Shown here in pieces: positions 1-54,100 of a stretch of 64,000 nt of DNA. Each line of letters starts with the position of its first letter. Positions within the stretch are counted from its first letter, which is position 1. Source of the stretch: Botryllus schlosseri (lineage: Eukaryota); contig CM119371.1 in NCBI GenBank assembly GCA_051294905.1, positions 32,056,001-32,120,000 of the forward strand, read 5' to 3'. The translations under genes were made by a program, and so were the position numbers. The notes under the pieces are model-generated. The model had not been told where the DNA came from. It worked only from the letters and a program-made list of their open reading frames with translations, and searched no databases.

Positions 1-570
1 AGTCGCAAGGCTCAGAGTCACAAGTCAATCTCACTTTTGCGATTCGACTCGAGTCAAGTCGAGTCATTTTCAAGTTCAAGTCCAAGTCAGCGTGCAACGA
101 GTCGAGTCCGAGGCATGCTATTCTGACTCGAGTCCGAGTCTTTGCGTTAACTGCTCAGTTTCCAGTTAAGGTCCTGATAAACCCACTTTTTATAACTCTG
201 TTAGGTGATATCGATAGTTCGCATTTTTAATATACTGATTTTCCTCACTTTTAGCAGTTTTGGTCGCATTTTCAAGTACCAGTACCAATAGAAAAAATCC
301 CAATATTGCAGTTACGTTACTATTCTTTGAAATTACAATGAAATGTCAGTCATAGAATTCCGAGTCTTGAGTCAAATGACTCAGTTCGGGTCGTGCGCAA
401 TGACTCGATTCCAAGTCGAGTCAATCCATACATCGACCCAAGTCGAGCTGACTTGGACTCGGACTTGACTCGGTGGTGAATTGAAAATGACTCGACTTGA
501 CCCGAGTCAAAATTATGAAAATGGGATTGACTTATGACTCGGTGCCTTGTGACTTAATGTTACAACCCTG
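1..570. mobile_element. MITE family A (hAT-like CAGGG terminus, rich in GACTC/GAGTC); near-complete copy
   Basis: Bases 1-75 are the inverted complement of ~480-555, and the element ends TTACAACCCTG at 570. Related fragments lie at ~3930-4050, 13967-14097, 16870-17298, 20727-21120, 32815-33195, 37585-37742, 55995-56109 and 58835-59643. Confidence 0.75.
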
Positions 571-802
571 ATGATCATATTATTCAAATCAGTATTTGCA
601 AACATCATGGCAGTTAAGAATTCACTGCAATGTCCAAGATACAGAATTTAAGGACATAGAATGACATGGAATTATAGCAATACAGACTTTAGGCGACAAT
701 CTCCATAACATTACCATGTCTAGAATGCCCTTAATGCAAGTGAATCAGTCTCAATATTCATATAGCGTATGGCTCAATTTACAACAAGTCTATAATTTTC
801 AG

Positions 803-3800
803 AATGAAGCTAGGCCTCACGGAGGACGACACGCTATGCAGCTGTATCATAGACTTAAACATGGAGCCTCTCAGCTACTGCCTACGACAAAACGCCACTG
901 TCAAAATGAGAATTCTCGACAAATGCATCAACCAGTAAGGATTGAACCCCGCACCTTAACATAACGCAGATCTTACAAGATTTGTATTCAGAGCTAATGT
1001 ACTCTTGGAAAGCTGCTACTACCAGAGAAACAGATGAAATGTCGTGAAACTAATCGGAAAAACTGTTTTTAATTCACTACTGATTATATTTCATGTATTT
1101 ATTAGGAATACACTCTTAAAACGTGTATTGAAGTTCCACAACCCAAAAACTATTCGGTTTTCAGGCACGAGGAAACCACAATTATCATGTCCCGTCATTT
1201 CTCGTGGACAAGAATACCGACTAGGATAGAGTCCAGGCAAATCAATGGGGAGAAGCATTACTACGCCGTGACAGAGTCACAAGTATTCGGTAAGGTGTAC
1301 GAACGATATTATACGCATTATTCATGTCTTTCGTGATTAGTTAGCCTTTAAAAATCAAAATAACTCCAAAATGCAATCACGACAAGTCTATGCAACAAAA
1401 CACTCCTATTTTTAGACAAACTTAGTCCTAGACTTTGCTGGAGCCTCTTAGATATAACACCTGCCGAGCGTGGTTCTGTAAAACCTACCAACTAGACCGT
1501 TGACCGTAGAATATCTTCTGAAAGAAATCTAGCTTCAATTCGGTTCGCTAGATTCTGTCATACTGTCAAATTTCGATAAATCACCGCAATTTTCAATGTA
1601 TAACGCGCATAATTTTACCGATATTTGCCCTAAAACCGAGAGATGGGTACAACAATTCTTGAAAAAAATCTCCCTCGAAATAAAAGTTATTGAAATCACA
1701 ACTTTCTTCATGTTTATTGTTAATCGCGCATCACACTCGGCCACTCTTCTCCGTAATTCGTATCATCATTGTTAGGCGCTGTCAATTTGAGAGAGGCGTG
1801 TTACCAATTAGTGAGATTGGTCTGCGCGGCACAACAGCACGCGTTGTGCGCGAGCGAAATAAGCTCATCGATTGCTGCGCGCGCATTCCTCGCTAAGTTA
1901 TCGCGTCATACAACAGGCCTGAACAATCGCATCTACAACAGGCCTCTTGCGCATCTCCAGGAGGCCTGGTGCGAAAGAAATAATCGTTGTTGGCCTGAGC
2001 AATCGCATCTGTAATAGGCCTCTTGCGCAAGATATCGTCGCTTGCCTGAACTATCACGTCGCCGGCCTCGCAGGCTTCGGCTGCTATCTACAAGCGTTTA
2101 GAGACAATGCCGTTAAGTGTATAGCGATCTCTGCAAATACTAAACCATAAACATCGCTAGTAACTTATCATACGTGCAAGTTTGTCAACACGACAAGCTT
2201 GCATAATCGCCATTCACACATGAACTATGCATGTACTGCTCGTGCAGGGTGCATACTATACATGGGCACAGGCTTTTCCCTAGAATCTACATGCCATTTT
2301 CAGGGCATTATGCATGGGGACGTATTATACATGGAATATCACGGTATAAATTTATTCTCAATTTCTTAATCAGTTAATTCCTCCAATCAATGAACAATTT
2401 ATGATTGAGAAATTGAAGTGTGCTTGATGCGGAACACGACGGGCCGGCTATTCTGACCGTCTCCGTGTTGTATTCAGGAAAGATTGCCGTTATCAACACA
2501 CAGAAAATGGATCGTTTTGTGATAACACAAGCCGGTGGCAATTTCCAATCTACCATCGACCCAGGTAAGATTCGAGTAAGCTTAGGCCTATGCTAAATTA
2601 GAACATGGTTGACTCCAATGGTAGCCTGAATCGAACGTACATTTGAAATTTAGGTGTCAGTATCAAATTGCAAGAAGACCAGCTATCGGGTCACCCTCCG
2701 CAGATGGTGGAAATGATCGTCAGGAACATATGTGAAGACGCGGTGAAGCAGACCAGTAAAGAAATGCCATGCGTGAGAGGTATGGCGGTGCATGGATGAA
2801 GTTTACTAGTGTTAAATTTATGCTACTTCAAATTATATCAAATATCCGACACAAATTTTACTTTGGCATTGGCTCAATTCCAGGGTATAGAAGCGAACAT
2901 AATTTTAGTTCGAAAATTTTTAATTCTTTTTTTTTATTTTCAAAATTTACTGCCAACCCCATGAATTTGTTGAATAGATTTCAAAAATAACTTTTTTCTT
3001 CAAATTATACTGCATATTGGATCAAAACGTAAGCTTGGCGAAAAAATAAGCTACATACCATATTTGGCTCAATTCCAAGGTATAGAAGCGAATGTTTGAG
3101 AATTTTTGAATTATTTTCAAAAAAAAAATTCAAAAATTCACTGCCAATCCCATGAATTTGTTAAGTAGGGTTTAAAAAATAAATTTTTTCTGCAAATTAT
3201 ACTGATTTTCGACAAAATTGTAAGTTTAGCCAAAAAAACGTTGCACATCATATTTGGCTCAATTCAATGTTTAAAATTTTGGATTTGAAACAATAGGTAG
3301 TATTTATGGTTGTCAGTTTGAAAAATTAGGATTGAGAATTTCGACCATACATACTATTTATTCCAAATCCATCCAAACCAAATCCATCCAAACATTTTAT
3401 TAATAAATTCAAAAGTTCTTTCTTATACAGCAATGCTCCTATAGGTTGGAATCGAGCCAGAATTGGCGTGCAGCCCTAAATTCCAATCATACAACAGGTG
3501 CTTATGGAAAGTTAGTCGGGGCCTGCCAGATCATCGAAATCAGCAAGGACACAATGGCACAGTCAGGCAGAATGAAGCACGGCATACGCTTTCCAGAAGC
3601 CATAACGCTATCTCTCCCTGTACCAAAACCTGCGATCAATTACTCTTCGGAAGCGGCTCCAAAACGAAAAGTGTTGATAATGCGAAAGCATACGAATCCA
3701 AGCTACAACACCATCGACGGCTACAGACACAATCCAAACGCGTACTCAAGGAAGATGGGTCACACTTGGAAAGATATCACATATAAAAACAGGTGGGAAG

Positions 3801-6800
3801 TTATGAATTTAATGGTCACTCACAAAATGATGACCAATTCAGATTTTTGAATTGAGTAAATTTGAAAATCTTGGTTATTTTGAATCTCTGGCATTGCGAG
3901 CAGACACTCAGACGACTCTAGATGTACAACTAGACTAATTAGCAGGATTGTGATGACTCGAGTCATATTGTCAAATGCGTAAAATGACTCGACTTGAGTC
4001 AATTTTTGTGTTGACTCGACTGGTACTCGAGTCATTGTGCATGACTCAAACTAATTCTAGTCTAATTTGGAAAAAAATGTGTAGCTATCATTCTAATTCT
4101 AATCAAATTTGGCAAAAAACTGCGTAGCTATCATGCTAATTTTAGTCTAATTTGGAAAAAATTTGTAGCTATCATACTAATTCTAATCCAATTTGGCAAA
4201 AACTGTGTAGCTATAATTCTAATTCTAGTCTAATTTGGTAATAAATGTGTAGCCATCATTCAAATTCTAGTCTAATTTGAAAATTTGTGTAGCTATCATT
4301 CTAATTCCAACCTTATTTGAAAAAAAATTGTGTAGCTATAATTTTAATTCCAGTCTAATTTGGAAAAAAATGTATAGCTAATAGTTATCATTCTAATTCT
4401 AATCGAATTTGGCAAAAACTGTGTAGTTATCATTCTAATTTTAGTCTAATTTGGAGAAAAAAATGTGTAGCTATTATTCTAATTCTAGTCTAATTTGGCA
4501 AAAGTTGTGTAGCTATAATTCTAATTCTATTATAAATTAAAAAGACCTGAGAAGCTGCTACAGTGTTGGCAAAATCGCACCGCATCTACAACCGACACTA
4601 GCTTGACAATTTCAAGTAAAAATCCCATTATTTCAACACGTATAATATCGACAACACTCCCAAATATTAGATTATAAAGATAAATCACAGTACTTGACCA
4701 GAATTTCTCGAATATATGTGACTAAAACTAGCATTTTTTTCATGTTTGAGATGAATCATCATTAAAAATTGGAAAAACGCATTAAAAAAAGAAGTGTCCC
4801 GTTGTATAAGACACGCAATTGACCGAAGATCCATAGCCGAGCCATAAAATGTATGGCATGATATTGCTCCTACAATACACCAATTTATATCTTTAGACGG
4901 GCTGCTGATGGCGTTATGTTCGAGCCGGACGAAAAAATAAACTTGGAGGTAACTGTGCCGGGGCTGTACATGGTATTAGCCATGGAAGAAGACCTGGACT
5001 CTGGAGAGGGCGACTCAGAATTGGGCCTGAACGACTTGGCAAACGGCATAGCCGAAACCAACCGCGAACACAAAGCCTGCGTCATGATACACCAAAAGAT
5101 ATCTCAAGAATCAATAATAAGTGAGTTACTGTATGGTATCAAACAAAGTTTTTGTGGTCAAAGTAGCCAGCATTGGAACTATGAGTAAAAATAGTAGATC
5201 AAAATTGCATTACAACCACACAGCTATACATATGGCTCTTTGAACTAACTAACTAACTACAGTAAATAGCAATCTTTACATCGAAATTGCATTACATTCA
5301 CACAGCTATACACATGGTAACCTGCGATGCCGTGGAGCCAATATCAAAGGCGATGGTTTCTTCAAAAACCTGGAAAAAGGTCTACCAGAGCAAGGAACTA
5401 TACATGCGCGAATGGCAGAAAATTCAGTTGGAGTTCAAAGGCGACCTCAAGCTTACCGTGAACCAAATGACGCCGGAACTGAGGTTTTACTCAAAGCGAT
5501 GGCAGGGATATCAGGTAATTTAGTCTAGAGTTATCAAAACACTGGCGTCTAGCATGCAATTAGACTAGAAACCTTCAAGTTTATCAAAATTAGATTAGAA
5601 TTAGAATTATAGCTATTATTTTTTCTCAAATTACACTAGAATTAGAATTATAGCTCTACTGCTTTTGCCAAATAAGATTAGAATTACAATTATAGCCGCA
5701 CAGTTTTTGCAAAATCAGACTAAAATTAGAATGATACCTCCACATTTTCCAAATTTTATTACAATTACTGAATTATTAAAAAAAATTGAAATCGAATAAA
5801 CATTCCCTATCAAAGCCTCCCTACGTTTCAGTTTCAATTGGAAGCTACCGCAGAGTCATTCGCAAAACAAGCCGAAACAGTCACAGGCACCATCGAATTC
5901 GTAGAAGCTGAAAGCCAGTCTGCGCGCAAGACCAAATCAGCGGCAAGCGTCCGGAATGACCAGGACGGTAACTGCGTGTGCAAGGCCTCTATCGAGATTG
6001 AACACGAGATGGCGAAACCTTTCAAACCAACGGTCGTTATCAAAGAAGTGCCAAAAGGTAATATTGTGGTAGGAATAGTAAAAATTTTGCAGTACTACGA
6101 AAGATACTTTCCTACATTCTCGGGTAGAAAATGTCTGTCCCTACTAAGTATCTTGCCAAGAATGGAGAAAGAACGTTCAACAGCAGCAGTTGTTGGCTGA
6201 CAACACTCAAGTTGTGCGTGCACTGCTGGTGACAAACCGTGTTGCTTCATTGTCTACATCACAATTTTTCATCATGCGGGTCTCGATATAAGAACCAATG
6301 CCCACGCAGTCTTGCTTCAGTTGGGATATTGCGGTACGTTGAGCACAACACCATGTCAACCTATTTGTTTCATTTGAACGCTTATGATTCACAATGAGCA
6401 GACAATGGGCCGTCTACAACGGTAGGCCTATAAAGTAGGCTACAAGCTGTAAAATGTCAAGTGATAAGATCACCGACAGTGCAAACATCTACGATACAAA
6501 CGAAATGCAGGCTGCAAAAATTTTTGACTTTGTAAACAATTTTGACAATTTTTTGACCTAACGCTACAATTTTGACAGAATTTTGACTTGTTTTGTAATG
6601 TCAAAAAAATGGCCCTACTTATAAGGTTATTGCTTACAAAACATATTTTGGCAATATCAAAATTAGACACTGGTAAACCAGAAAGGAGGTTATCAGATTG
6701 CTGTAAAGATTTCAGAGGTTTTTTATTCAAACAATTCTAGCTTTTTAGTTTCCAATTCTCTACTAGTTGCTGACGATTACCCCTGATGAGTGTTACCCAA

Positions 6801-7079
6801 AAATATCCCAGTTCATTTCAATATGTAGCCTGCACATTAGGCCTACTCAATTGTATATTGAAGCTTTTTACCTCGTAGAAGCTCTTGAAAATATATTCCT
6901 TACTAAATGCATTCACTTACACAATCAAAACACAGCTGAGAAACTACAGCTTCAAGCACAAAGTGAATTAAAGCAATTCTTCCTTTCCAGTTCCGATATA
7001 TCGCGAATATAAAATGAAATGGCTGCAACATCTGTCTCAAGAAGATATCAAACGTTACAAGGCAGCCCACGGCATCTAA
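803..7079 (+). CDS. Spliced ZU5-ZU5-UPA domain protein (ankyrin/PIDD/DTHD1-like supramodule) without a death domain; nested antisense in an LRP1 intron; 5' end possibly incomplete
   Basis: Nine GT-AG exons in consistent phase: 803-934, 1165-1289, 2478-2564, 2654-2779, 3498-3792, 4897-5120, 5306-5514, 5832-6057, 6991-7079 (TAA). 503 aa from the ATG at 804. ZU5-like motifs: LTEDDTLCSCIIDL, GKIAVINTQKMDRFVITQAGGNFQSTIDPGVSI, IRFPEAITLSLPVPK, WKDIT. UPA-like motifs: KVYQSKELYMREWQKIQLEFKGDL, LRFYSKR, TGTIEF, CVCKASIEI. Confidence 0.85.
6060..6600 (+). repeat. Dispersed repeat family G
   Basis: Core GAACGTTCAACAGCAGCAGTTGTTGGCTGACAACACTCAAG recurs at ~10220-11100 (reverse), ~33830-34600 and ~42480-43160. 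Confidence 0.8.
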
Positions 7080-7417
7080 CTACGTCTGCAAGTATCAGAG
7101 ATGGCTTGAGAGCTCGGAAGATCTGCAGATCGCGACGATAAACTAATACTTTTACAATACAAACAAATGTATCAGACGACTACAAAGTATTGGTGTTTTA
7201 AGCAACATAATATACCAATATTTGTGTTTGCATTCGGCTTTATTAGCTATCTGCTTCCGTCCTGACATGGACTGTATGATTTATTTCTAGAGAGCGTCTT
7301 TTGATAACAATTTTCAATGTGAATGCTAGATTATTCGTGCTTTCTTTAACAATGATGCACATGTGTTTATAAAAAGCTACTACTTATACTCTACGATTAG
7401 ACACTGCTTTATATGGT

Positions 7418-7423
7418 AATAAA
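7418..7423 (+). terminator. Polyadenylation signal AATAAA of the nested gene
   Basis: AATAAA about 340 nt after the stop codon at 7079 and just before a satellite array. Confidence 0.55.
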
Positions 7424-7479
7424 CACAAAATTATTGCATATTAATTCGAAGGCTTGTCTCTTACGATTATAGCTTTATA

Positions 7480-8623
7480 GGTTTTTCCAAATTAGATTAG
7501 AATTAGAATGATAGTTACACATTTTTTTTCCTAAAATTAAACTAGAATTAGAATTATAGCTACACACTTTATTCCGAATTAGATTAAAATTATAATTACA
7601 GACTCAATTTTTTTCCAAATTAGAATAGAATTAGCATTAAAGGCTGTATATATTTTATAGCTACACATTTTATTCAGATTACATCAAAATCATAATTACA
7701 GACCCACCGTTTTTTCCAAATTAGACTAGAAGTAGGATTATAGCTTCACATTTTATTCCAAATTAGATTAGAAGTAGAATTATAGCTGCACTTTCATTTC
7801 ATGTTATATTAAAATTACAATTATAGCTAGGCCTACATGTTATTTTACCAAATTTGAATAAAATACAATTATAGCTACATAGCGCACATGTTTTTCTCAA
7901 ATTTGACGAGAATTATAATTATAGCTACACATTTTATTCTAAATTAGATTACAAGTAGAATTAAAGCTGCACTTTCAGTTCACGTTATACTAAAATTACA
8001 ATTATAGCTAGGCCTACATGTTTTTTTTTACCAAATTAGAATAAAATACAATTATAGCTACATAGTACACATTCTTTTCTTAAATTAGACTAGAATTATA
8101 ATTATAGCTATGCATTTTATTGTAAATTAGATTAAAATTACAATTACAGCCATACACTTTTTCCAAATAAGACTAGAATTAGAATTATAGCTACACATTT
8201 CATTTCCAATTAGATTATAATTATAGCTGCATATTTTTCAAAATTAGATTACAAGTAGAATTATAGAGATACAGCTTTTTCAGATCAGACTAGAATTAGA
8301 TTTAGAGCTACACGCTTTTTCCAACTTAAATTAGAATTAGAACAATAGCTATGCATTTTTTTGTCTAAAATGAACTACAATTTAAATTATAGCCACACAT
8401 TTGATTCCAAAGTAGATTAAAATCACAATTATAGCTACATAGTTTTTATCCAAATGTGATTACAATTAATAGCTTGTATCAAATCATAGTTTAATGTCAG
8501 GTAAACCACAAATTAGATTAGAATTAATATTACAGCATAGAAACATTTTGCAAGTTAGATAAACAGCATTTCGATTTAATTAGCCTAATTATACAACCAG
8601 AATCATACAGTTGTCCAAGTCTG
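7480..8623 (+). repeat. Minisatellite family B (~40-bp unit TTCCAAATTAGATTAGAATTAGAATTATAGCTACACAG)
   Basis: Degenerate tandem array. Other arrays at ~4050-4540(rev), 5520-5790, 9050-9410(rev), 12773-13360, 25751-26460, 29040-30080, 31226-32533, 33210-33530, 35040-36920, 47760-48710(rev), 56645-57600. Confidence 0.9.
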
Positions 8624-8812
8624 GTGCCTTACGCCCTAGGGGTCCACTTAAACACCCCTGCATCCAACGAAATATTCTAATAATTGCAGCTTACAATACA
8701 TTATGTAAAAAATTACCGACTAATTCTCTGGCTAATTTTCCACCTCTCTCTCTTATCGCATAAAGCGAAACATAAATATTTTAATTATTTTTTTTGATAC
8801 TCTTAAACTCAC

Positions 8813-11800
8813 CCTGAGCATTCGTACAGGACCAACGCTCTCAGCCTGTCCTCGTCCAGTAGCCCGGTCACGACAACCTGCTTGTCGTAGGCGCCGCGTC
8901 TGGTCTGGTCCAGGGAATGGCGTGAAATTGTGGCAGACCTGAAGCCGGTCCAGTACAGGGCGTCTTCGCCGTGGTGGTACGCTATGCCCTCGACTGCGTC
9001 TACGTCTGAAAATATAAGGGCAGTGTCAAAGGTTCAAGGACCGCTCAAAATTTCAATTCTAATTCAATTTGGAAAAAAATGTGAAGCTATAATTCTAATT
9101 TTAACCTAATTTGGAAAAAACTGTAGCTTTAATTCAAATTCTAATCTAATTCGGAAAAATACGTAGCTATAATTCTAAATTTTAATCTAATTTGGAAATA
9201 AACTGTGTTGCCATAACTTTAATTCTGATCAAATTTGGAAAAAAAACTGCGTAGCTCTAATTCTAATTTTGAACTAATTTGGAAAAACTGTGTAGCTATA
9301 ACCCTAATTTTAATGTAGTTTAGAAAAAAATGTGTAGCAATAACTTCAATCGTAATCTAATTTGAAAAATGTGTAGCTATAATTCTAATATTAATCTAAT
9401 TTGGTTAAGCTGTCTTCATAAAACCCACCGTGCACGACGGGCTTCGGCACACGCAGTTTCGCGTCGCGTTCCCTGGGGTTGACCACGTAAATAGCGCTGG
9501 CGCGCATGTCGCTGTAAAACAGCCGTGACTTGGAGAAGTCCTGCGCCAGGGCTATCACCGACTTTATGAACGATTGGTGCTGAAAGGAAATAAAAACAGA
9601 TTATTATCAGGGGTGTTTTTTCGGACCTGTCCTACGTCTCAAACTATACGCTGGCGCTATAACTTGAGCTGCACTTAGGCATTAGGGCTGTAAAAAAAAA
9701 AAAGTTTTTCCAAATTTCACGGTTATAGTGGTTAGATTGATACTTAAGAAGACTCTTGGAACAGATTTAACATTCATATCTCCGAAATAAGGTGTGAAAA
9801 AGACTCGGCTACCTGCATGCGTGGCACGGGTGCGTTCGGATCGCTGACGTTGTCCACGTCGATACTTTCGATGGTGTTGCCTCTCGAGAACACAACGTAG
9901 GAAGGATGCTCTGAAAATACCGAGGGTGCTGGCGTGTGTTTTAAATCGGACATCACGGGGTGCAATTAGAGCACCCTAGACATTTTGTTGTATATAAAAG
10001 AGAATACTGTACACTTGAATTTTGGGAATATACCTGTCTGCGGAAAAAACTGTACTTACCAATACAATTTGAAGAGTTTTTCGGGTCGATTTTGTTGAAA
10101 GAGCATTTACACTCGATGCCCTTGCCTGGTCCCTGATACATGCATATATGGGCGCAGCCACCTGCGATAACATTCACAGTTATTATCACCAATGCTACGC
10201 AAGGTTCTTAACAAAGCATTAGATTTGCCTGCTACAAAACTCTGAATGGCTTTTTTTTTTTTTGACATGTCAAAATTTGTCAAAATTTTGTCAAAATCGT
10301 TCATAAGTCCAATTTTTTTTGACGTTTGCATTTCGTTTGTATCGTAGATTTTCCACTATTGGTGAACTTATCATTTGATATTTTACTGCTTGCAGCCTAC
10401 TTTATACCGTTGCCTACCGTTGTAAACGGCTAATTGTCTGCTCATTGTGAATCATAAACGGTCAAATAAAACACATAAGTTGACATGGTGGTATGGTCAA
10501 CGTACCGCAATATCCTAACTGAAGCAAGACGGCGTGGGCATTGCATCGTTCTTATATTAAGAAGCGTGTGATGAAAAATTGTGATGTAGCCAACATTTTC
10601 AGAATGAAGCAACACGGTTTGTCACCAGTAGCGCACGCACAACTTGAGTGTTGTCAGCCAACAACTGCTGCTGTTGAACGTCCTTGGCAAGCTTCTTAAA
10701 AGAACATGCACTTTCTACCCAAGAATGTAGGAAAGTATATCTCGTACTACAAAAAACAGTAATTATTTCTACCCATAATACATATCGTAACCACTGGGAT
10801 TCTTCATAGGGCCAGATTTCGTTAAAATATTGGTTTTTTCATGTAAAAAGTTGCCTGTTTCTAAGCCAAAAACGTTTTTTCAGGCCTAACTACTTCGTTA
10901 GGACAGCCAGTTCCAACCAGAAATGAAGATAAGGGGTACAATTTTAACATTATTTTGGAAAACACCTAATTTGCATACGTTAGGTCAAAATTTGGTCAAA
11001 ATTCAGTTTGTTTAGGTCAAAAGTCAAAATTTTGATTTTTTTAGGTCAAAATTTTCCTTTTTTAGGTCAAATTTCGACACAATGTTACTAACGTCAAAAT
11101 AAAGGCTTATAGTCCAGAACAAATTGCAAAAAGACCAATATTACGTAGCGTAGCTTCCCCCGCAAACTTGTGCATTAAGTGCCGGAAGGTATGCAGTTGA
11201 AGAGCTATCACATAACGACATAATAGTATGTTGTAGTAACGACGGGCATTTTCAGTTTATTTCAATGTATAGCACTCACCAAATCAATGCTTAAATAACC
11301 GATATAGAATCTATAGAAGTATATGTGAATGCTTTTGGCGATGGTGAGATCCAGAGGTAGGCTAGTTAGCTTTACGTTTTCGTTACAAGTAGACTACTCT
11401 AGTGTTTTCAAGCGGCTCCGACATCCAAAAAGGTTGGGAACCCCTGTTCTACATCGAGGCCTATTATTAAACTAAATATACTTACCGTTATTAACGCTGC
11501 AAGGATTGGACCCCTCTTGTCTGTCCGGGCTGTATACCTGACAAAGAGATTCGTTTAGATTCAAATTTCGACATAAAACTTTGAAATACGGTGAAGAATT
11601 CGTAAAATTTGGCTCGGATTAAAATCACGAAACATACTTGAATTCCTCTGGAAGAAGTCCTACCGGCGACGCCGGGATGGTTGGCCACCTGCGTACAATT
11701 TTCTGGCAGATAACAGCTCGATATGCCCGCGTGAGCTCTAGAAGACAAAAACACATTACCGAAAATTAGTTGTAAATTGGAATTAGGACTTTAAGCTCAA

Positions 11801-33100: not shown

Positions 33101-36100
33101 ATTTGAAAAGTGAATCGAGTACAAGTCGAGTCAATACAAAAATTGACTCGAGTCGAGTCATTTTATGGATTTGAAAATATGACTCGGGTACAAGTTTAAG
33201 TTTTTTTCAACTAAAATTACAATGATAGCTACACAGGTGACTAGAATTCAACTTGCAGATGGATAATTTTTCTAAATTAGATTAGAATTAGAATTTTTCG
33301 AAATTGATTGGAATTAGAATAATACCCACATAATTTTTTGCATTTTTTTAGATCAGACTAAAATTAGAATGTGGCTAGTTTTTTTCAAATTACATTACAA
33401 TTACAATTATAGCTACAGTTTTTTGTAAAATTAAACTAAAATTACACTGATAGCTACACAGCTTTTTCAAAGTCAGACTAGAATTAGAATTATAGCTACA
33501 TAGTTGTTCCTAAATTAAAATTAGACAAATTACATTGGAACAATCAAACAACAAATTTGGCTCAATTCCAGCAAGTATTAGCACTCACAGCAATTCCTTT
33601 CGTCAGATCTGTCGATGCAGTCGTGGACACCGTCGCATTTCGGCACGCAATCGTAGGTCCCGCTGCTAGTCTCGCAGCGGTGCTGGTAAAAGGCGCAAAA
33701 CATTAGAGAATTTGCTTGGGCGGAAAATGAAATGAAGAGGCAAAAGCCAGAGGCAAGCTCGTAGGCCGTTTTAAAACTATGGCGAGGTTGGATACAGCAA
33801 TGCAAATTGGAGTATTTGGTCGTAATAACTAGGGTGATTATTTCAACCTAAAAAACGGAAGATTTTGACCCAAAAAACATGAAAAAAAATTAATTTTGAC
33901 AAAATTTTGACCTCAAATTAGGTGTTTCCGCACATAATGTTAGAATTGCACTACTGATCTTCATTTCTGGTCGGAACTGCGTGTCCTTACGAAGTAGTTT
34001 GGCCTGAAAAAACGTTTTTGGCTCAAAAACTGACAAATTATCACATGAAAAATTGGTATTTTAACAAAAACTGTCCCTATGAAGAAGTCCGGCAGTTACT
34101 CACGTATTATGGTAGAAATAATTAAAATTTGTTGCAGTACAAGGAAAGATACTTTCCTACATTCTTGGGTAGAAAGTGTCTGCGCTTACTCAGATGCTTG
34201 CCAAGAATGGAGAAAGAACGTTCAACAGCAGCAGTTGCTGGCTGACAACACTCAAGTTGTGCGTACACTGCTGGCGACAAACATTGTTACTTCATCCTGA
34301 CAATGTTGTCTGCATCACAATTTCCCAGCTTGCGCTTCATGATGTAAGAACCACGCAATGCCTACGCAGTCTTGCTTCAGTTAGGATATTGCGGTACGTT
34401 CACCAGAAAACCATGTCAACCTATTTGTTTCATTCGACTGTTTATGATTCGCGATGAGCAGACGATGGGCCGTCTACAACGGTAGGCCTATAAAGTAGGC
34501 TGCAAGCTGTAAAATGTCGAATGATAAGTTCACCGACAGTGCAAAATCTACGATACAAACCAAATGTAGAGGTCAAAATAGTTTTGACATGTAAAAAAAT
34601 CGCCCCGGTCAACAACATAAATATGCAAGATTCCGCACACGAATAGAGAACGAAATCGGTGAGTAAAATCCACTTTAATGCCTAAAACAAATGGGTTCCA
34701 CGGACCCCGTGAAAGCAAACGCCAAGCCGTAAAACGAAAACAAAACAAACCATAGAGTTCTGTCTGACTGGATGGCACTCGCAATCGCTTTCGTCCGATT
34801 TATCGTCGCAGTCTGGGTCGTCGTCGCACCACCAAGCCGCGTAGATACAGTGCGACGAATTCTTACATTGCTTTTCGCTATCGGAGCATTTGACTTCTGC
34901 AGAATAGAACGATTCAGGTTGAATTGCGTGTTGGTTAATCTTAAGAATGGAGAAATTTGTGCAGTAAAACATGCTTGGAGGGTGGAAAAGGGGCATTATA
35001 ATATAATAAAATAGAACATAATAAACAAATCAGTAAGTGATTAGACTATAATTACAATAAAAGCTACCTGGTTTTCTCAAATCATTAGAATTAGAATTAT
35101 AGCTTCACGGTTTTTTACCAAATTAGACTAAAATTCAACTCATAGCTGTATAGTTTCTCCAAATTAGATTAGAATTGGTATTATAGCTGCATAGTTTTCA
35201 TAATTTAGAATTAAAGCTACACAGTTCTCGCCAAATTATATCGGAATTAGAATTATGGCGTCAAAGTTTTTGCCAAATTAGACCAGAATTGGAATTGTAG
35301 CTATAGATTTTTCTACAAATTAAATTCGAATTCGAATTATCGCTTCAGTTTTCGCCAAATTAAACTAGGATTAGAATTATAGCTACTCAGTTTTTGCCAA
35401 ATTATATTGGAATTAGAATTACGGCTTCACAATTTTTGACAAATTAGACCAGAATTGGAATTGTGGCTATAGATTTTTTTCCCAAATTAGGTTAGAATTC
35501 GAATTATAGCTTCAGTTTTCGCCAAATTAAACTAGGATTAGAATTATAGCTACTCAGTTTTTGCCAAATTATATTGGAATTAGAATTACGGCTTCACAAT
35601 TTTTGACAAATTAGACCAGAATTGGAATTGTGACTATAGATTTTTTTCCCGAATTAGGTTAGAATTCGAATTATAGCTTCAGTTTTCGTCAAATTAAACT
35701 AGGATTCGAATTATAGCTACTCAGTTTTTGCCAAATTATATCGGAATTAGAATTATGGCTTCACAGTTTTTGCTAAACTAGACCAGAATTGAAATTATAG
35801 TTATAGATTTTTTTCCGAATTAGGTTAGAATTCGAATTATAGCTTCAGTATTCGTCAAATTAAACTACGATTAGAATTATAGCTACTCAGTTTTCGCCAA
35901 ATTATATTGGAATTAGAATTATGGCTTCACAGTTTTTGCCAAATTGGACTGGAATTGGAATTGTAGCCATAGATTTTTTTCCAAATTAGGTTAGAATTCG
36001 AATTATAGCTTCAGTTTTCGCCAAATTATATTGGAATTAGAATTATGGCTGCACAGTTTTTGCCAAATTATATTGGAATTAGAATTATGGCTTCACAGTT

Positions 36101-39100
36101 TTTGCTAAATTAGACCAGAATTGAAATTATAGTTATAGATTTTTTTCCGAATTAGGTTAGAATTCGAATTATAGCTTCAGTATTCGTCAAATTAAACTAG
36201 GATTGGAATCGTAGCTATAGATTTTTGTCCAAATTAGGTTAGAATTCGAATTAGAGCTTCAGTTTTCGCCACATTAAACTAGGATTAGAATTATGGCGTC
36301 ACAGTTTTTGTCAGATTAGACCAGAATTGCAATCGTAGCTATAGAATTTTTTCCAAATGAGGTTAGAATTCGAATTATGGCTTCCAGTTTTCGCCAAATT
36401 AAACTAGGATTCCAATTATAGCTACTCAGTTTTCGCCAAATTATATTGGAATTAGAATTATGGCATCAAAGTTTTTGCCAAATTAGACCAGAATTAGAAT
36501 TGTAGCCATAGATTTTTTTCCAAATTAGGTTAGAATTCGAATTATAGCTTCAGTTTTCGCCAAATTATATTGGAATTAGAATTATGGCTGCACAGTTTTT
36601 GCCAAATTATATTGGAATTAGAATTATGGCTTCACAGTTTTTGCCAAATTAGACTAGAATTGGAATTGTAGCTATGGATATATTTTCCAAATGAGGTTAG
36701 AATTCGAATTATAGCTTCAGTTTTTGCCAAACTAAACTAGGATTAGAATTATAGCTACACAGTTTTGCCAAATTACATTATAAAAAGAGTTATAACTACA
36801 CAGATATTGCCAAACTATATTGGAACTAGAAATATAGCTTCACAGTTTTTGCCAAATTAGACTAGAATTGGAATTGTAGTTATCGATTTTTTTTCCAAAT
36901 TGGATTAAAATTAGACTTCAGGCATTTCTATCTATTTAGTCAATTACACCACTAGTATTAGCCAGTTTTCTAGAGTCTCAAAAATCCCAAAAATTTGCCC
37001 CGCCGATTATCTCACCGTCGCAATTCTCCTCGTCACTGCCGTCCATACAGTCCGGGTCGCCGTCGCACTGCCACCCTTTGGAAATACACCGTCCGCCACC
37101 CACGGCCGCAGAGGCGCCCTGGCCGCACGTAAACTCCTCTTGCGGGTTGCAGGGCCGCGAGGTAGGTATCGTTTCGAAGGTACAGTTGCTCTCGTCCGAG
37201 CCGTCCTCTGGCAAGAGATAGTAATAGTTCAGACTCATACTCGGAACAAGAGGTAGTCCGTAAGGGAGTATTTTCCCAGAGCATACTTGCAATATTCACC
37301 ACTTCAACAGAGTCAGAAAAAAACTATTTTTTCAAAATTTTGCACCTTTCTGATAAAATTTTCAGGTCACTGGTTAAAAAAATGTGGCACACCAATTTTG
37401 GTTCAATTTTAGCTACAAGTGTTTAAAAAGTTTTGATTTATTATAAAATTATATTTTTAAAATTTTACTGTCAAGCCAAACGAAATTGTACAGTTTTCTG
37501 AGCAAAAACTACGCAAAAAAAAACTTTACGTAAATTAAAACCCATAGAAATTATTTCAATAATTCTAGAATTATCCACAGTCAGCGATCAGAGGGTCGAG
37601 TTCGAGTCATGGTATCTCGAGTCATATGACTTGGTTCGAGTCATACGCAATGACTCGAGTCGAGTCAATTCACAATTTTTCAAAAATGACTCGAGTCAAG
37701 TCGAGTCATCAGAAAATCGTGACTTGAGTCGTTGCAATCCTGGTAGCCAGAAAGAAAATGTATTTATTTTTTTATATTAAATTAAAAAATTTCTTAAATT
37801 CCAGCTTCCACAGTCATAATCGAGCCAACTTTGGCGTGCAGCATTTTTTCAGCAAACCTAACAATTTTATCCAGTAATATTGGAAGAAATCAGTTATTTT
37901 TGAACGGACCTATTGCGCATATCCCTGCTCATAGTGAATCAAAGCTTAAAAAACCCTGCGTCTTCAAATAGGTTTTCCTGGTAAGGTTCCTCTCAGAGGT
38001 AAAAGAATACTGGTCACTCACTGCAGTCTGAAGATCCATCACATCTCCACCAGTTGGGAATGCATTCTCCGCCGTAACAGCGAAAGAATGACGTAGACTC
38101 GCATTCGTAAGTGCACCCTGAAAACAAACGAACACAGTACACTTGCCTGGTCGCAAATAAAAACACTCCGACGGACTTTGAAACATTCAGGAATGGCGGA
38201 TTTCACCATCATACGTGGCAGGGATGTTTGAAAATGAAGGATGACACCAGAAAAATATAGAATCTTACCATATCTCATGAGAATTTCGCCGTTAAAAGTG
38301 CTGCGAACTTACCCTTAAAGCTACATTCCGGTTTTATTTGCAAGTTTTAAAAACTGATTAGTTCTAGTTGTAGTTGCATATCTTCAAAAGTGAGTAGTTC
38401 TAGTTTTAGTTGTAGTTGCGAATTTTGGAAAGTGAGTGGTTCCAAATCTAGTTCTAGTTCTGGTTCTAGTTCTAGTCTTAACAAGGTCATAGTTCAAGTT
38501 CTCGTTTTAGTTCCAATTCTAGTTCTGGTTCTAGTTCTAGTTCTAGTCTTAACAAGGTCATAGTTCAAGTTCTAGTTCTAGTTCTAATTCTAATTCTGGT
38601 TCTAATTCTAGTTCTAGTCGTAACCAGGGAGTAGTTCAAGTTCTAGTTCTAGTTCTAATTCTAGTTTTGGTTCTAGTTCTAGTTCTAGTCTTAACAGGGT
38701 CCTAGTTCAAGTTCTAGTTGCAGTTCTAATTCTAGTTCTAATTCTAGTTCTAGTTCTAATTCTAGTTCTGGTTCTAATTCTAGTTCTAGTCTTAACCAGG
38801 GAGTAATTCATGTTTTAGTTATAGTTCTAATTCTAATTCTGGTTCTGGTTCTGGTTCTAGTTATAGTCTTAGCAAGGTCATATTTCAAGTTCTAGTTGCA
38901 GTTCTAATTCTAATTCTAGTTCTAGTTCTAGTTCTAGTTCTAGTTCTAATTCTGGTTCTAATTCTAGTCTTAACCAGGAAGTAGCTCAAGTTACAGTTCT
39001 AATTCTAGTTCTAGTCCTAGTCTTAACAAGGTCATAGTTCAAGTTCTAGTTCTAATTCTAGTTCTGGTTCTAGTTCTAGTCTTAACAAGGTCATAGTTCA

Positions 39101-42100
39101 AGTTCCAGTTGCAGTTCTAATTCTTGTTCTGGTTCTAATTCTAGTTCTAGTTCTAATTCTAATTCTAGCTCTGGTTCTAATTCTAGTTCTAGTTCTAATT
39201 CTAATTCTAGTTCTGGTTCTAATTCTAGTTCTAGTGTTAACCAGGGAGCAGTTATAAGTTATCGTTATAGTTCTAATTCTAGTTCTGGTTCTAGTCTTAG
39301 CAAGGTAATAGTTCAAGTTCCAGTTGCAGTTCTAATTCTTGTTCTGGTTCTAATTCTAGTTCTAGTTTTAATTCTAATTCTAGTTCTGGTTCTAATTCTA
39401 GTTCTAGTGTTAACCAGGGAGTAGTAATAAGATATCGTTATAGTTCTAATTCTAGTTCTGGTTCTAGTCTTAGCAAGGTAATAGTTCAAGTTCCAGTTGC
39501 AGTTCTAATTCTTGTTCTGGTTCTAATTCTAGTTCTAGTTTTAATTCTAATTCTAGTTCTGGTTCTAATTCTAGTTCTAGTGTTAACCAGGGAGCAGTTA
39601 TAAGTTATCGTTATAGTTCTAATTCTAGTTCTGGTTCTAGTCTTAGCAAGGTAATAGTTCAAGTTCCAGTTGCAGTTCTAATTCTTGTTCTGGTTCTAAT
39701 TCTAGTTTTAGTTCTAATTCTAATTCTAATTCTTGTTCTGGTTCTAATTCTAGTTCTAGTTCTAATTCTAATTCTAGGTCTGGTTCTAATTCTAGTTCTA
39801 GTGTTAACCAGGGAGTAGTTATAAGATATCGTTATAGTTCTAATTCTAGTTCTGGTTCTAGTCTTAGCAAGGTAATAGTTCAAGTTCCAGTTGCAGTTCC
39901 AATTCTTGTTCTGGTTCTAATTTTAGTTCTAGTTCTAATTCTAATTCTAGTTCTGGTTCTAATTCTAGTTCTAGTGTTAACCAGGGAGCAGTTATAAGTT
40001 ATCGTTATAGTTCTAATTCTAGTTCTGGTTCTAATTCTAGTTCTAGTGTAAACCAGGGAGCAGTTATAAGTTATCGTTATAGTTCTAACTCTAGTTCTGG
40101 TTCTAATTCTAGTTCTAGTGTTAACCAGGGAGCAGTTATAAGTTATCGTTATAGTTCTAATTCTAGTTCTGGTTCTAGTCTTAGCAAGATCTTAGTTCAA
40201 GTGGATTTTTGAAAATCGATGGGTACTAATTAGTTATATCAGTCGGGTTTAGTCATGATTAACATTCAGAATCACATAACGTCAGTTCAAATCTTCGCCG
40301 CCCAGGTCCAACCGCCCCGGCATACCTGCCAAAGCTCCCTCGTCGCTGCCGTCCGGGCAATCGTCCTCCTCGTCGCATTTCCAACTGAGCGGTATGCACC
40401 GGCCCATCCCGCATCGGAATTTGGTCGCGGAATCGCATTCCACGTACGCTGTGCAATAGAAAAACAATTGCATAAAAATATTGAAATTTTCTCGAGTATT
40501 CCTAGTTCTAGATTAAATTGCTCATTTTAAAAATTAGGCGGTTTTAGTTCTAGTTGCGAATTTTGAAAAGTGAGTAATTATAGTTCTGACTTTGTATTTA
40601 AAATTTTGAATATTGATTACGAGCGCCACTCTCAACTCTTCGAAACATTACCTGTCCACCAAGCCTGTCCCAAGTCTAGCCCTGACCAGGACTGGCTTGG
40701 TGAGACGATATTTTGTGAAGTAAATTGCGCTCGTAATGGCTATTCAAAATTTTGCCACACAGAAACTACGATGTGTTATTGGTACCGTAATTTTCCATGC
40801 CTGATACCCACCCTTAAAATGGCGTGTGGATTAGGGGTCTTTAAAAATGACCATTTTTCTCAAATCGTTCTGGCTACTTGATAAAATTGTTAGGTTACCT
40901 AATTGAAGCCTACGCACCAAATTTGGTTCAATTCCAACCAGTAACCGCTTTGCTACAGGAGAAGTAAGTTTCTATTTATGATACAAAAATAAATAATAAA
41001 AAATTGGAAAATTTTCTGTTCACCCTATGAAAATGTTAGGTTTTCTATAGAAACGATGTTCACCAAATTTGGTTCAATTCCAACCATTGCAAGCTGAGTT
41101 ATCGTCGTCGAAAAATTTGGATTTGAATAAAATAGTATTTACGGTGGGCACACTTATAATAAATAATTAAAGATTTGGTCACCGTAAATACTATTTTATT
41201 GATAATCCAAAGCTTTTCGACGGCAATAACTCCGCTTCCACTTGTTGGAATTGAACCAAATTTGGTGAACATCGTTTCTATACACAACCTAGCACTTTCA
41301 TGGGGTGAACAGAAAAATTGTCAAATTTTTTTTTAGTTATTTCTATATAATAGATACAAACTTTCTTCTCCTGTAGCAATGCTGCTACTGGCCGGAATTG
41401 AACCAAATTTGGCGTGCCGGCTTATATTAGGTAACCTAACAATTTTATCAAGTAGCCAGTACGATTTGAGAAAAACAGTCATTTTCGAACACTCCTAATG
41501 CGCCGCCCCTGATTTTAGGACAAAAAGCTGTAAAATTTTGCGCATTACACATGGAATTTCACAGTACATTTTACTTTACAAAATGTAGAAAAGTCAAAGA
41601 AACGCTCACTTCTTCAAATTTTTCCAAGAAGAACCTAATACCACCACAAGCCCTGCCCCGGATTAACCCCCAAAAGTGTACCCACAGCAATTCGCGTTCT
41701 CATCCGACCCGTCGTGGCAGTCCGCGTCGTGGTCGCACACCCAGTCCTCCGGGACACACCCGCCGTCTTCGCACAGAAACTGGTCGTCCCCGCACAGCCT
41801 CTTGCGCGATCGGCACAGCCCCTCGTCCTCGTCTTCGCCGGTACGGCCGCAGTCCACGTCCCCGTCGCAGACCCACGACTGCGGGATGCACAGGGACTCG
41901 GTGCACTTGAAGCGGTCCGGTCCGCAGGTCGAGTTTTCTGGGGGGGGAAATGGTTTTGAGTTTTGAAAAACGGATTTTCAAATCTTGAAGACTCTTGGAG
42001 GTACAGAACTTCAGTAAACGATTCCAAATTTTTTCGAAATTTTATTAGACTCAAACCTACGAAATCCGCAAACAAATTGAAATTGGATATTTTACAAATA

Positions 42101-51100: not shown

Positions 51101-54100
51101 ACGGTGTTGTAGTCGGTCTACTGTTCCGAACGCAAATACTCACCTGGGATCTGAGCGGTGCGGTGCACAATGCGGATGCTGCCGGGCTGTTTCAGCCCGT
51201 TAAATATCGTCATGACTTCGGTGGTACCGTGTCGCTGGGACGGCGGGCCACCGCGCCAGGCATCGATACGTATTATGCTCTGGTCGTTCCAATTGGTCGC
51301 GTACAGGTAACCTGTAACGTTGACGGTCGACCACTGGTTTTCTGAGTAGTTCTAGATCTATTCCTAGAGAGTAGTTGCGGTTCTAGTTGAGGATTTTGGA
51401 AAGTGAGTGGTTCCAGATCTAGTTCTAGTTGAGGTTTTTGGAAAGTGGGTAGTTCTAATTGTAGTTGTACTTGAAGGTTTCGAAGGAAGTTGTTTTAGTT
51501 CTGGTTCTAGATTTTCAAAAGCGAGTAGTTCCAGTTGTAGTTGAAGGTTTTGAAAAGAGGATAGTTCTAGTTCTAGTTGAGCATTTTGAAAAGTGAGTAG
51601 TTGTATTTCTAGTTCTAGTTGTAGTTGAAGATTTTGAAAAGAGGATAGGTTCTAGTTCTAGTTGAGCATTTTGAAAAGTGAGTAGTTGTATTTCTAGTTC
51701 TAGTTGAGAATTTTCAAAAGAGGATAGTTCTAGTTCTAGTTGAGGATTTTGAAAACTGAATAGTTGTATTTCTAGTTCTAGTTGAGAATTTTCAAAAGAG
51801 GATAGTTCTAGTTCTAGTTGAGCATTTTGAAAACTGAGTAGTTGTATTTCTAGTTCTAGTTGTAGTTGAAGATTTTGAAAAGAGGATAGGTTCTAGTTCT
51901 AGTTGAGCATTTTGAAAAGTGAGTAGTTGTATTTCTAGTTCTAGTTGAGAATTTTCAAAAGAGGATAGTTCTAGTTCTAGTTGAGCATTTTGAAAACTGA
52001 GTAGTTGTATTTCTAGTTCTAGTTGTAGTTGAAGATTTTGAAAAGAGGATAGGTTCTAGTTCTAGTTGAGCATTTTGAAAAGTGAGTAGTTGTATTTCTA
52101 GTTCTAGTTGAGAATTTTCAAAAGAGGATAGTTCTAGTTCTAGTTGAGGATTTTGAAAACTGAATAGTTGTATTTCTAGTTCTAGTTGAGAATTTTCAAA
52201 AGAGGATAGTTCTAGTTCTAGTTGAGGATTTTGAAATGTGAGTAGTTGTATTTCTAGTTCTAGTTGAGAATTTTCAAAAGAGGATAGTTCTAGTTCTAGT
52301 TGAGCATTTTGAAAACTGAATAGTTGTATTTCTAGTTCTAGTTCTAGTTGAGAATTTTCAAAAGAGGATAGTTCTGGTTCTAGTTGAGCATTTTGAAATG
52401 TGAGTAGTTCTAGCTCTAGTTGTGGTTGAAGATTTAGAAGCAAGTAGTTGTAGTTCTAGTTGAGCATTTTAAAACATGAGTAGTTCTAGTTCTAGTTCTA
52501 GTTGAGGATTTTGGAAAGTGAGTAGTTCCAGATCTAGTTCTAGTTGAGGATTTTGGAAAGAGGGTAGTTCTAATTGTAGTTGTACTTGAAGATTTCGAAG
52601 GAAGTTGTTGTAGTTCTAGTTCTAGATTTTCAAAAGTGAGTAGTTCCAGTTGTAGTTGAAGATTTTGAAAAGAGGATAGTTCTAGTGCTAGTTGAGCATT
52701 TTGAAAAGTGAGTAGTTGTATTTCTAGTTCTAGTTGAGAATTTTCAAAAGAGGATAGTTCTAGTTCTAGTTGAGCATTTTGAAAACTGAGTAGTTGTATT
52801 TCTAGTTCTAGTTGTAGTTGAAGATTTTGAAAAGAGGATAGGTTCTAGTTCTAGTTGAGCATTTTGAAAAGTGAATAGTTGTATTTCTAGTTCTAGTTGA
52901 GAATTTTCAAAAGAGGATAGTTCTAGTTCTAGTTGAGGATTTTGAAAACTGAATAGTTGTATTTCTAGTTCTAGTTGAGAATTTTCAAAAGAGGATAGTT
53001 CTAGTTCTAGTTGAGGATTTTGAAATGTGAGTAGTTGTATTTCTAGTTCTAGTTGAGAATTTTCAAAAGAGGATAGTTCTAGTTCTAGTTGAGCATTTTG
53101 AAAACTGAATAGTTGTATTTCTAGTTCTAGTTCTAGTTGAGAATTTTCAAAAGAGGATAGTTCTGGTTCTAGTTGAGCATTTTGAAATGTGAGTAGTTCT
53201 AGCTCTAGTTGTGGTTGAAGATTTAGAAGCAAGTAGTTGTAGTTCTAGTTGAGCATTTTAAAACATGAGTAGTTCTAGTTCTAGTTCTAGTTGAGGATTT
53301 TGGAAAGTGAGTAGTTCCAGATCTAGTTCTAGTTGAGGATTTTGGAAAGAGGGTAGTTCTAATTGTAGTTGTACTTGAAGATTTCGAAGGAAGTTGTTGT
53401 AGTTCTAGTTCTAGATTTTCAAAAGTGAGTAGTTCCAGTTGTAGTTGAAGATTTTGAAAAGAGGATAGGTTCTAGTGCTAGTTGAGCATTTTGAAAAGTG
53501 AGTAGTTGTATTTCTAGTTCTAGTTGAGAATTTTCAAAAGAGGATAGTTCTAGTTCTAGTTGAGCATTTTGAAAAGTGAGTAGTTGTATTTCTAGTTCTA
53601 GTTGAGAATTTTCAAAAGAGGATAGTTCTAGTTCTAGTTGAGCATTTTGAAAAGTGAATAGTTGTATTTCTAGTTCTAGTTGAGAATTTTCAAAAGAGGA
53701 TAGTTCTAGTTCTAGTTGAGGATTTTGAAAACTGAATAGTTGTATTTCTAGTTCTAGTTGAGAATTTTCAAAAGAGGATAGTTCTAGTTCTAGTTGAGCA
53801 TTTTGAAAACTGAATAGTTGTATTTCTAGTTCTAGTTCTAGTTGAGAATTTTCAAAAGAGGATAGTTCTGGTTCTAGTTGAGCATTTTGAAATGTGAGTA
53901 GTTCTAGCTCTAGTTGTGGTTGAAGATTTAGAAGCAAGTAGTTGTAGTTCTAGTTGAGCATTTTAAAACATGAGTAGTTCTAGTTCTAGTTCTAGTTGAG
54001 GATTTTGGAAAGTGAGTAGTTCCAGATCTAGTTCTAGTTGAGGATTTTGGAAAGAGGGTAGTTCTAATTGTAGTTGTACTTGAAGATTTCGAAGGAAGTT

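Follow-up and report, generated by a model that had tools for sequence, protein, structure and literature searches.

The window analysed here is a 64,000-nt stretch of Botryllus schlosseri DNA (G000:C1:32056001-32120000) within a 495.5-Mb assembly, and 40 kb of its left flank were examined as well. Coding exons of two genes were recognized on opposite strands. Between positions 803 and 7079, the plus strand carries nine exons that belong to one real, single-copy, spliced, protein-coding gene, which is the ortholog of LOC144430408 of Styela clava. The minus strand carries exons of a predicted giant gene of the low-density lipoprotein (LDL) receptor family, of the LRP1/LRP2 type, which is interrupted within a YWTD beta-propeller. 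In the overall explanation that we favour with good confidence, the window holds about half of a gene of approximately 1,000 codons, this gene is nested in a 16,138-nt intron of the LRP-type gene, and the conserved part of its product probably has a ZU5-ZU5-UPA-type fold. Positions are given in window coordinates, with negative numbers for the left flank; positions 2674, 5894, and 9918 of L002, a piece of the left flank, correspond to window positions -7326, -4106, and -82, respectively.

A nine-exon coding chain with an ortholog in Styela clava

All nine plus-strand segments have an AG acceptor and all but the last have a GT donor, and their spliced length is 1,512 nt, equal to 503 codons and a TAA. 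Variation of just six splice sites in the middle of the chain, from the donor of exon 4 through the acceptor of exon 7, yielded 936 other in-phase, stop-free models. An open spliced frame alone was thus weak evidence, and independent support was needed.

The first support came from homology. Exon 5 (97 aa) was searched with phmmer against 1,835,955,588 representative proteins and had one credible relative, P0001 (1,023 aa; E 1.3e-20, 51% identity), which is the NCBI entry "uncharacterized protein LOC144430408" of S. clava. The other three matches of exon 5 were low-complexity or fibronectin-repeat proteins (E 1e-6 to 6e-4), and besides the S. clava protein no relative was found among the ~1.8 billion representatives. 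In word-based homolog searches, exon 5 gave none under "longer", and residues 480-1023 of P0001 gave only the protein itself under "near" and none under "shorter". When P0001 was compared by local tblastn with the window and its 40-kb left flank, 13 collinear plus-strand matches were obtained from -4106 to 7076, by which all nine segments were covered. When the spliced product, together with the exon upstream of it, was aligned to residues 431-1023 of P0001, 341 of 591 positions were identical (57.7%). This pair alignment contained one gap of 1 residue and one of 2 residues and no others, both away from the exon junctions, and the two proteins share the C-terminal residue.

Transcripts were sought in sequencing runs carrying the same species label, namely, X2 and X5, which were available as Logan contigs, and two raw RNA runs including X19; the evidence from these runs consists of the best-supported joints and loose ends among the matches listed. 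A 199-letter X5 contig with a depth of 27 linked 934>1165 and 1288/9>2477/8 with GT..AG ends, and the joint 934>1165 was also present in one raw X19 read. With the join of the upstream exon into position 803, described below, three junctions were bridged by RNA-type contigs, and contigs lay over exons 1, 2, 5, and 6 and the stop region. The depth of the nested exons in X5 was 16-40, compared with 1.7 for the adjacent host exon, and the nested exons were also deeper in X19. Because of this greater depth, transcription of the gene itself fits better than intronic read-through, with the reservation that contig depth reflects expression poorly. Several points weigh on the other side. Six of the nine junctions on which an earlier sequence-only reading of the window and its upstream extension depend were absent among the joints listed. 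The depth of exon 8 was zero in all four runs, that of exon 7 was 0.8 and came from X19 only, and the RNA nature of X2 and X5 is itself only a guess. Taken together, with X5 counted as presumed RNA, these results indicate independent transcription and splicing of the nested gene.

The individual exons, all on the plus strand, are supported as follows. Exon 1 (803..934) is an internal coding exon with the acceptor ttttcag/A and the donor CAACCA/gtaagg; it was covered by X5 contigs over 815-929 and corresponds to residues 512-562 of P0001 with 73% identity. Exon 2 (1165..1289) is held by both of the joints in the X5 contig and by residues 564-606 (74%), and exon 3 (2478..2564), whose joint lies within the same contig, matches residues 605-640. 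Exon 4 (2654..2779) was placed by its splice sites and by residues 635-677 (37%), and its junctions are free of gaps in the pair alignment. Exon 5 (3498..3792), the longest of the nine and single-copy, was overlain by X2 and X5 contigs over 3562-3729 in addition to its phmmer match. Exon 6 (4897..5120) matches residues 775-849, and X5 contigs over 4940-5120 terminated exactly at its donor. Exon 7 (5306..5514), in which conservation of the putative UPA region is highest, corresponds to residues 851-920 with 64% identity, and exon 8 (5832..6057) to residues 918-997 with 45% identity, homology being its sole support. The last coding exon (6991..7079) ends with the TAA at 7077-7079, matches residues 997-1023 (78%), and was reached by an X2 contig over 7055-7157. 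The 3' untranslated region, given here as far as the AATAAA at 7418-7423 (7080..7423), lies within a stretch of X19 depth that extends over 6993-7600 and falls almost to nothing from 7601 onwards.

Constraint and copy number were examined in addition. Among the differences listed, beyond which 19 further ones were unlisted, 15 of 20 exonic variants were synonymous, compared with the 22% that random change would give in the stretches covered (binomial p = 6e-7). Both exon 5 and P0001 matched this locus alone in the 495.5-Mb genome, indicating that the gene is not a repeat or transposon gene. If the chain in the intron were a dead pseudogene, or a frame open by chance, this could account for the ease with which 936 alternative stop-free models were built and for an exon 8 that had no RNA depth. 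This explanation is already contradicted by the spliced contigs, by an ortholog that aligns from end to end at 57.7% identity without gaps at the junctions, and by the strong synonymous excess; the frame is also intact and its stop is common to the ortholog. We therefore assign it a negligible probability.

Thus, the chain of nine plus-strand GT-AG exons that the sequence-only reading had joined into an in-phase, stop-free frame of 503 codons followed by AATAAA was confirmed at the level of the sequence as well as by the ortholog, the contigs, and the variants. That reading had also described the gene as hidden, which does not hold generally, since an S. clava annotation of the ortholog, as an uncharacterized protein, already exists.

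A longer gene of which the nine exons form the 3' half

The frame of exon 1 begins near an ATG, and the sequence-only reading had taken the nine exons for a complete gene encoding 503 aa. They are instead the C-terminal half of a gene of ~1,000 codons, as shown by the acceptor in front of position 803 and by the upstream matches of P0001. The X5 contig that reaches position 800 carried 44 extra letters ahead of it, and the 30 letters listed matched L002 9889-9918 with one synonymous difference. An exact search of the loci for a 23-base loose-end string gave no match, and reading L002 itself revealed that one base differed. The upstream exon ends with GACAG/gtactg at L002 9918, that is, window position -82, and base 803 finishes an Arg codon that was opened in this preceding exon. 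Across the join the translation reads E F D R M K, the same as in P0001, indicating that Met-804 is an internal residue.

Upstream of the window, four stretches of P0001 were matched by tblastn on the plus strand: residues 1-25 at -4106..-4035, residues 293-330 at -2206..-2096, residues 402-446 at -1117..-974, and residues 431-519 at -347..-81. Except for the last donor, the borders of the upstream exons are simply the coordinates of these matches. The first of them lies within a 256-codon open frame (L002 5882-6649), in which an ATG occurs at L002 5894 with a stop four codons upstream. A further candidate exon was observed at L002 8466-8678.

Accordingly, the gene comprises ~1,000 codons, split among at least 13 coding exons that reach from -4106 to 7079 (~11.2 kb); the start codon is located ~4.1 kb to the left of the window, at L002 5894, and the stop at 7079. 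The edge of the window and an internal methionine had together made half a gene look whole, and correction roughly doubled the length of the model.

The coding region lies antisense within one intron of an LRP-type gene

YWTD-propeller, EGF, and LDL-A exons of the giant LDL-receptor-family gene occur on the minus strand, both in the window and in the 40 kb to its left, and the region is free of N. To the right of the nested gene, the nearest host exon (8813..9003, minus strand) encodes a blade of a YWTD beta-propeller. Its translation matched the propellers of LRP4 and LRP6, and a minus-strand X2 contig lay over 8938-9006. The exon ends at the donor CTCAGG/gtgagt at 8813/8812, from which the host intron occupies window positions 1..8812 and continues into the flank. 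The next host exon begins after the acceptor ctcttttgcag/ACC, with its first base at -7326 (L002 2674), so the whole intron extends over -7325..8812 and measures 16,138 nt. The two host exons join in phase, and the translation runs through one YWTD blade (...LYECSG-PQYVFWTNWNK...). A tblastn with 13 YWTD-containing open reading frames (ORFs) revealed no further YWTD-like exon between 8813 and -7326, including the part within 1-8812. Among solved chains, the left host exon was best matched by LRP2 (E 9e-115), and the short right exon by LRP4 and LRP6.

These results indicate that the entire plus-strand coding region, from -4106 to 7079, is inside one intron of the host on the opposite strand. 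The statement of nesting covers the coding region and not the 5' untranslated end of the gene. By their consensus sites, matching phase, and the continuity of the blade, the host exons on either side would be joined in one mRNA.

If the plus-strand gene merely stood between two separate LRP-type genes, or if the assembly were misjoined there, it would not be nested. Consistent with such an arrangement, no RNA read or contig crossed 8813>-7326 among the joints listed, which is also a point against nesting itself, and the order of domains was not matched to a named LRP. However, the right exon stops in the middle of a blade at a consensus donor (CAGG/gtgagt), and a YWTD blade that is split by an intron means that the propeller cannot end there; the left exon, with a consensus acceptor and the matching phase, completes the blade. 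Moreover, propeller, EGF, and LDL-A exons go on for 40 kb on the same strand in N-free sequence. We consider separate flanking genes or a misjoin very improbable.

The antisense nesting in a single LRP-type intron, as the sequence-only reading had described it, was therefore borne out by the in-phase join of the blade and the lack of an intervening host exon. Its donor at 8812 and its statement that 1-8812 holds no further LRP-type exon were both correct, and the leftward extension it had suggested did reach the next LRP-type exon, at -7326. Its intron length of >8.8 kb is true as a lower bound, the actual length being almost twice that. It had named the host exon as propeller 6 of LRP1; the assignment to an LRP-type gene stands, while LRP1 and the number of the propeller were not verified, LRP2, LRP4, and LRP6 being the best solved relatives.

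Nested gene and receptor gene thus form an ordinary host/nested pair, with no sign in these data of functional coupling between the two. Antisense nesting within large receptor genes is frequent among animals, and by itself it requires no special mechanism.

Several repeats were observed in and around these introns. Window positions 1-608 and 6081-6992 had very high contig depth in X2 and X5 (up to 20,579 and 9,635) and many loose ends; they are high-copy transcribed repeats in introns of the nested gene, and 1-608 is full of GACTCGAGTC-like palindromic words. Arrays of ~60-70-base "ctagaattagaattatagctacaca"-type units, in both orientations, occupy 4060-4530, 5560-5760, 7440-8560, and 9060-9400, and they caused many false joints in the contig runs. 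Long tandem arrays with repetitive open frames on both strands are present in LRP-type introns at 38300-40200 and 51300-55000, the latter with a GC skew of 0.5 at 52-54 kb. Similar open frames recur in LRP introns at 6201-6374 (plus), 10442-10621 (minus), and 34173-34457 (plus) and at L004 5729-6037 (minus); they are copies of one dispersed element, with sequences such as "...QTVLLH...NIR...PRSLASV.ILRYV...TMSTY.F...YDS".

Build of the protein and its possible relation to ZU5-ZU5-UPA modules

The protein consists of two halves. Conservation is poor over the N-terminal ~470 residues, in which Asp, Glu, Ser, Thr, Asn, and Pro are abundant and which can be aligned between the two species only in patches, whereas the C-terminal ~550 residues are conserved, with 58% identity between them. 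For the conserved half, we think it reasonably probable that it is a very divergent beta module of the ZU5-ZU5-UPA type that lacks both ankyrin repeats and a death domain. The rival explanation leaves the gene real and nested and takes this half for a domain that is restricted to the lineage and has a different or a new fold, with a resemblance to ZU5 and UPA that arose from chance and composition.

Language-model features showed such a resemblance. In the ESM-Atlas, residues 470-1023 of P0001 were nearest to ZU5/UPA clusters (0.94, 0.93, and 0.92), and the next neighbours, at 0.89-0.90, were UNC5B fragments, a "UPA/ZU5 domain-containing protein", a "death domain-containing protein 1" (DTHD1-like), and FIIND clusters. 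Nine of the ten best named matches belong to one family or clan, ZU5/UPA, a point against an unrelated fold. The calibration of these scores has to be considered, because a score of at least 0.9 was also reached by 4-10% of shuffled proteins (4 to 10 of 100). The first Atlas match shared 157 of 256 features, which is below the 170 typical of true family members, and a second query, with residues 825-1023, gave no usable match; these observations favour the other-fold explanation.

Comparisons with ZU5 genes of the same genome gave a signal that was weak and well placed. The ortholog pair was compared by hhalign with 12 exon pieces of the ankyrin, UNC5-like, and C3 ZU5 loci of this genome and with 8 LRP decoys. 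The top five scores (21.4, 19.3, 17.7, 17.2, and 16.6) were all from ankyrin or UNC5-like pieces, while the decoy maximum was 15.7. The matches fell at corresponding landmarks in the same order, namely, "IP.GA", "F..P..L.LP", "LW.D.T", and the ZU5-to-ZU5 junction, an ordering that argues for the ZU5-ZU5-UPA type over a different fold. The ankyrin UPA exon of this genome scored 12.4, within the range of the decoys, at the expected position. In a Smith-Waterman profile alignment with the joined ankyrin ZU5-ZU5-UPA of the same genome (467 aa), z was 2.2-3.2, and the score was reached by 4-13 of 400 shuffles. Real-sequence control windows reached it in 2 of 30 cases with BLOSUM62 and in 0 of 30 with BLOSUM45. 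The alignment therefore beats 97-99% of shuffles and 28-30 of the 30 real controls, again a point against an unrelated fold. In single-exon Smith-Waterman tests, z exceeded 4 in 1 of 18.

The profile-based results stand against a ZU5-ZU5-UPA module and speak for the other-fold explanation. The hhalign probabilities were all at most 1.5%. P0001 had no Pfam family even at E <= 10, with the UPA profiles (PF17217 / PF17809) included, and Pfam gave nothing of substance for the nine exon pieces. A six-frame genome search with PF00791 generated 5 matches at 3 other loci (ankyrin, UNC5-like, and a further one), and at E <= 1 the present locus was not matched. Membership of the ZU5 and UPA families by Pfam profile was therefore not found. 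Sequence searches of the PDB, by phmmer and by a profile with alignment A2, returned only two chance matches to retroviral protease (E 0.24 and 0.5); A2 has six rows, P0001 and those 5 of 10 exon rows tried that aligned well, and replaced a MAFFT alignment, A1, which had scattered the less conserved exon pieces and was set aside. A hidden Markov model of the two orthologs, run against 3,210 ORFs (1,170 from ZU5 loci and the rest decoys), found nothing above the decoys. Alignment of the exon chain by a dynamic programme was not significant (z 0.57, reached by 129 of 500 shuffles), and when a repeat was looked for by comparing the two putative ZU5 units with each other, the result was likewise not significant, so that no internal duplication was detected. 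For AlphaFold2, run with A2 on a 571-residue part of P0001, the mean predicted local distance difference test score was 34.8 and the predicted template-modelling score was 0.19, a model that is unusable for fold comparison. The finding of a single relative among 1.84 billion representatives would also suit a lineage-restricted domain.

Weighing both sides, we regard another or a new fold as a serious possibility, though a doubtful one, and retain the divergent ZU5-ZU5-UPA-type module as the probable identity of the conserved half. The sequence-only reading had identified tandem ZU5-ZU5-UPA units outright. Support for this comes from the language-model features and the weak similarity to the ankyrin and UNC5-like exons of the same genome; all Pfam and PDB searches were empty. 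Its by-eye alignment of motifs to ankyrin is not evidence.

At the C-terminus, neither PF00531 (Death) nor any other family matched P0001, and both orthologs end ~45 residues past the last conserved block. An HFS triplet in exon 2 was considered as a self-cleavage site of the PIDD type and rejected, as the S. clava ortholog has HFT; by our own placement, which we take as provisional, the triplet is also off the position of such a site.

With this build, the product would probably be a cytoplasmic scaffold that binds one or more partners through a compact beta module, with the acidic, disordered N-terminal half as a flexible arm extending from it. Such a scaffold would lack both the membrane-binding repeats and the death-fold signalling end. 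A far stronger proposal would combine two claims: that the gene founds a new ascidian-restricted branch of ZU5-ZU5-UPA scaffolds, having lost ankyrin repeats and death domain, gained an acidic arm, and diverged past all profiles, and that its residence in the receptor gene is both functional and conserved, acting, for instance, by reciprocal interference in transcription or by way of a product linking the cytoplasmic traffic of the receptor to the cytoskeleton. We consider this combination unlikely.

Two features of the ZU5 loci used for comparison were observed in passing. On the minus strand of L012 and L011 (G000:C16:4976624-4996623), a 4,307-codon open frame is located ~1.1 kb downstream of the last ZU5-ZU5-UPA exon of the ankyrin gene. 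It looks like a giant-ankyrin-type exon, a kind of exon that is the subject of PMC5135030. On the plus strand of L009 (G000:C3:13221412-13224666), positions 160-2331 hold a 724-codon intronless open frame with a ZU5 match (E 7.5e-4, over the cut-off), which is the third ZU5 gene in this genome.

Comparison with known systems

With one other detectable family member among ~1.8 billion proteins, and being expressed and under coding constraint, the gene may be one that is restricted to the lineage of styelid-like ascidians. If the conserved half is indeed a ZU5-ZU5-UPA module, it would provide a gauge of the divergence up to which such a module, missed by profiles, is still recognized by a language model. 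No mention of LOC144430408 was found in the literature, and searches on ZU5/UPA with ascidian, tunicate, or DTHD1 gave nothing relevant among the matches listed.

In PIDD1, UNC5, DTHD1, and FIIND-type proteins, the UPA unit is followed by a death domain or a CARD. The Atlas neighbours of the nested-gene protein at 0.89-0.90 include UNC5B fragments and DTHD1-like and FIIND clusters. In the nested-gene protein, only ~45 residues follow the last conserved block, without a Death-family match.

In the arrangement of the locus, the closest parallels are host/nested gene pairs. Intronic genes make up ~6% of Drosophila genes according to the abstract of PMC3786989, and a global catalogue of mammalian host/nested pairs exists, as indicated in the abstract of PMC11694760. 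Like these pairs, the present one has a complete coding region in one intron of a larger gene on the opposite strand. It differs in that an uncharacterized gene lies inside a propeller intron of an LRP-type gene, and this particular pair was not found in print.

Ankyrins carry a ZU5-ZU5-UPA module, as stated in the abstracts of PMC9864249 and PMC5779224. The nested-gene protein differs from them in having no ankyrin repeats, no death domain, and no Pfam match to ZU5 or UPA, and the place of their membrane-binding domain is taken by the acidic N-terminal half of ~470 residues. The proposed order of the units and their approximate spacing agree with those of ankyrin, in which a death domain may follow, and the matches to the ankyrin of the same genome occur in the same order.

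The nearest known protein is LOC144430408 of S. clava. It comes from another species, and its N-terminal half is alignable merely in patches. Both proteins combine a low-complexity N-terminal half with a conserved C-terminal half, they are collinear from the first to the last residue, and their C-terminal 593 residues, 57.7% identical, run to the same C-terminus.

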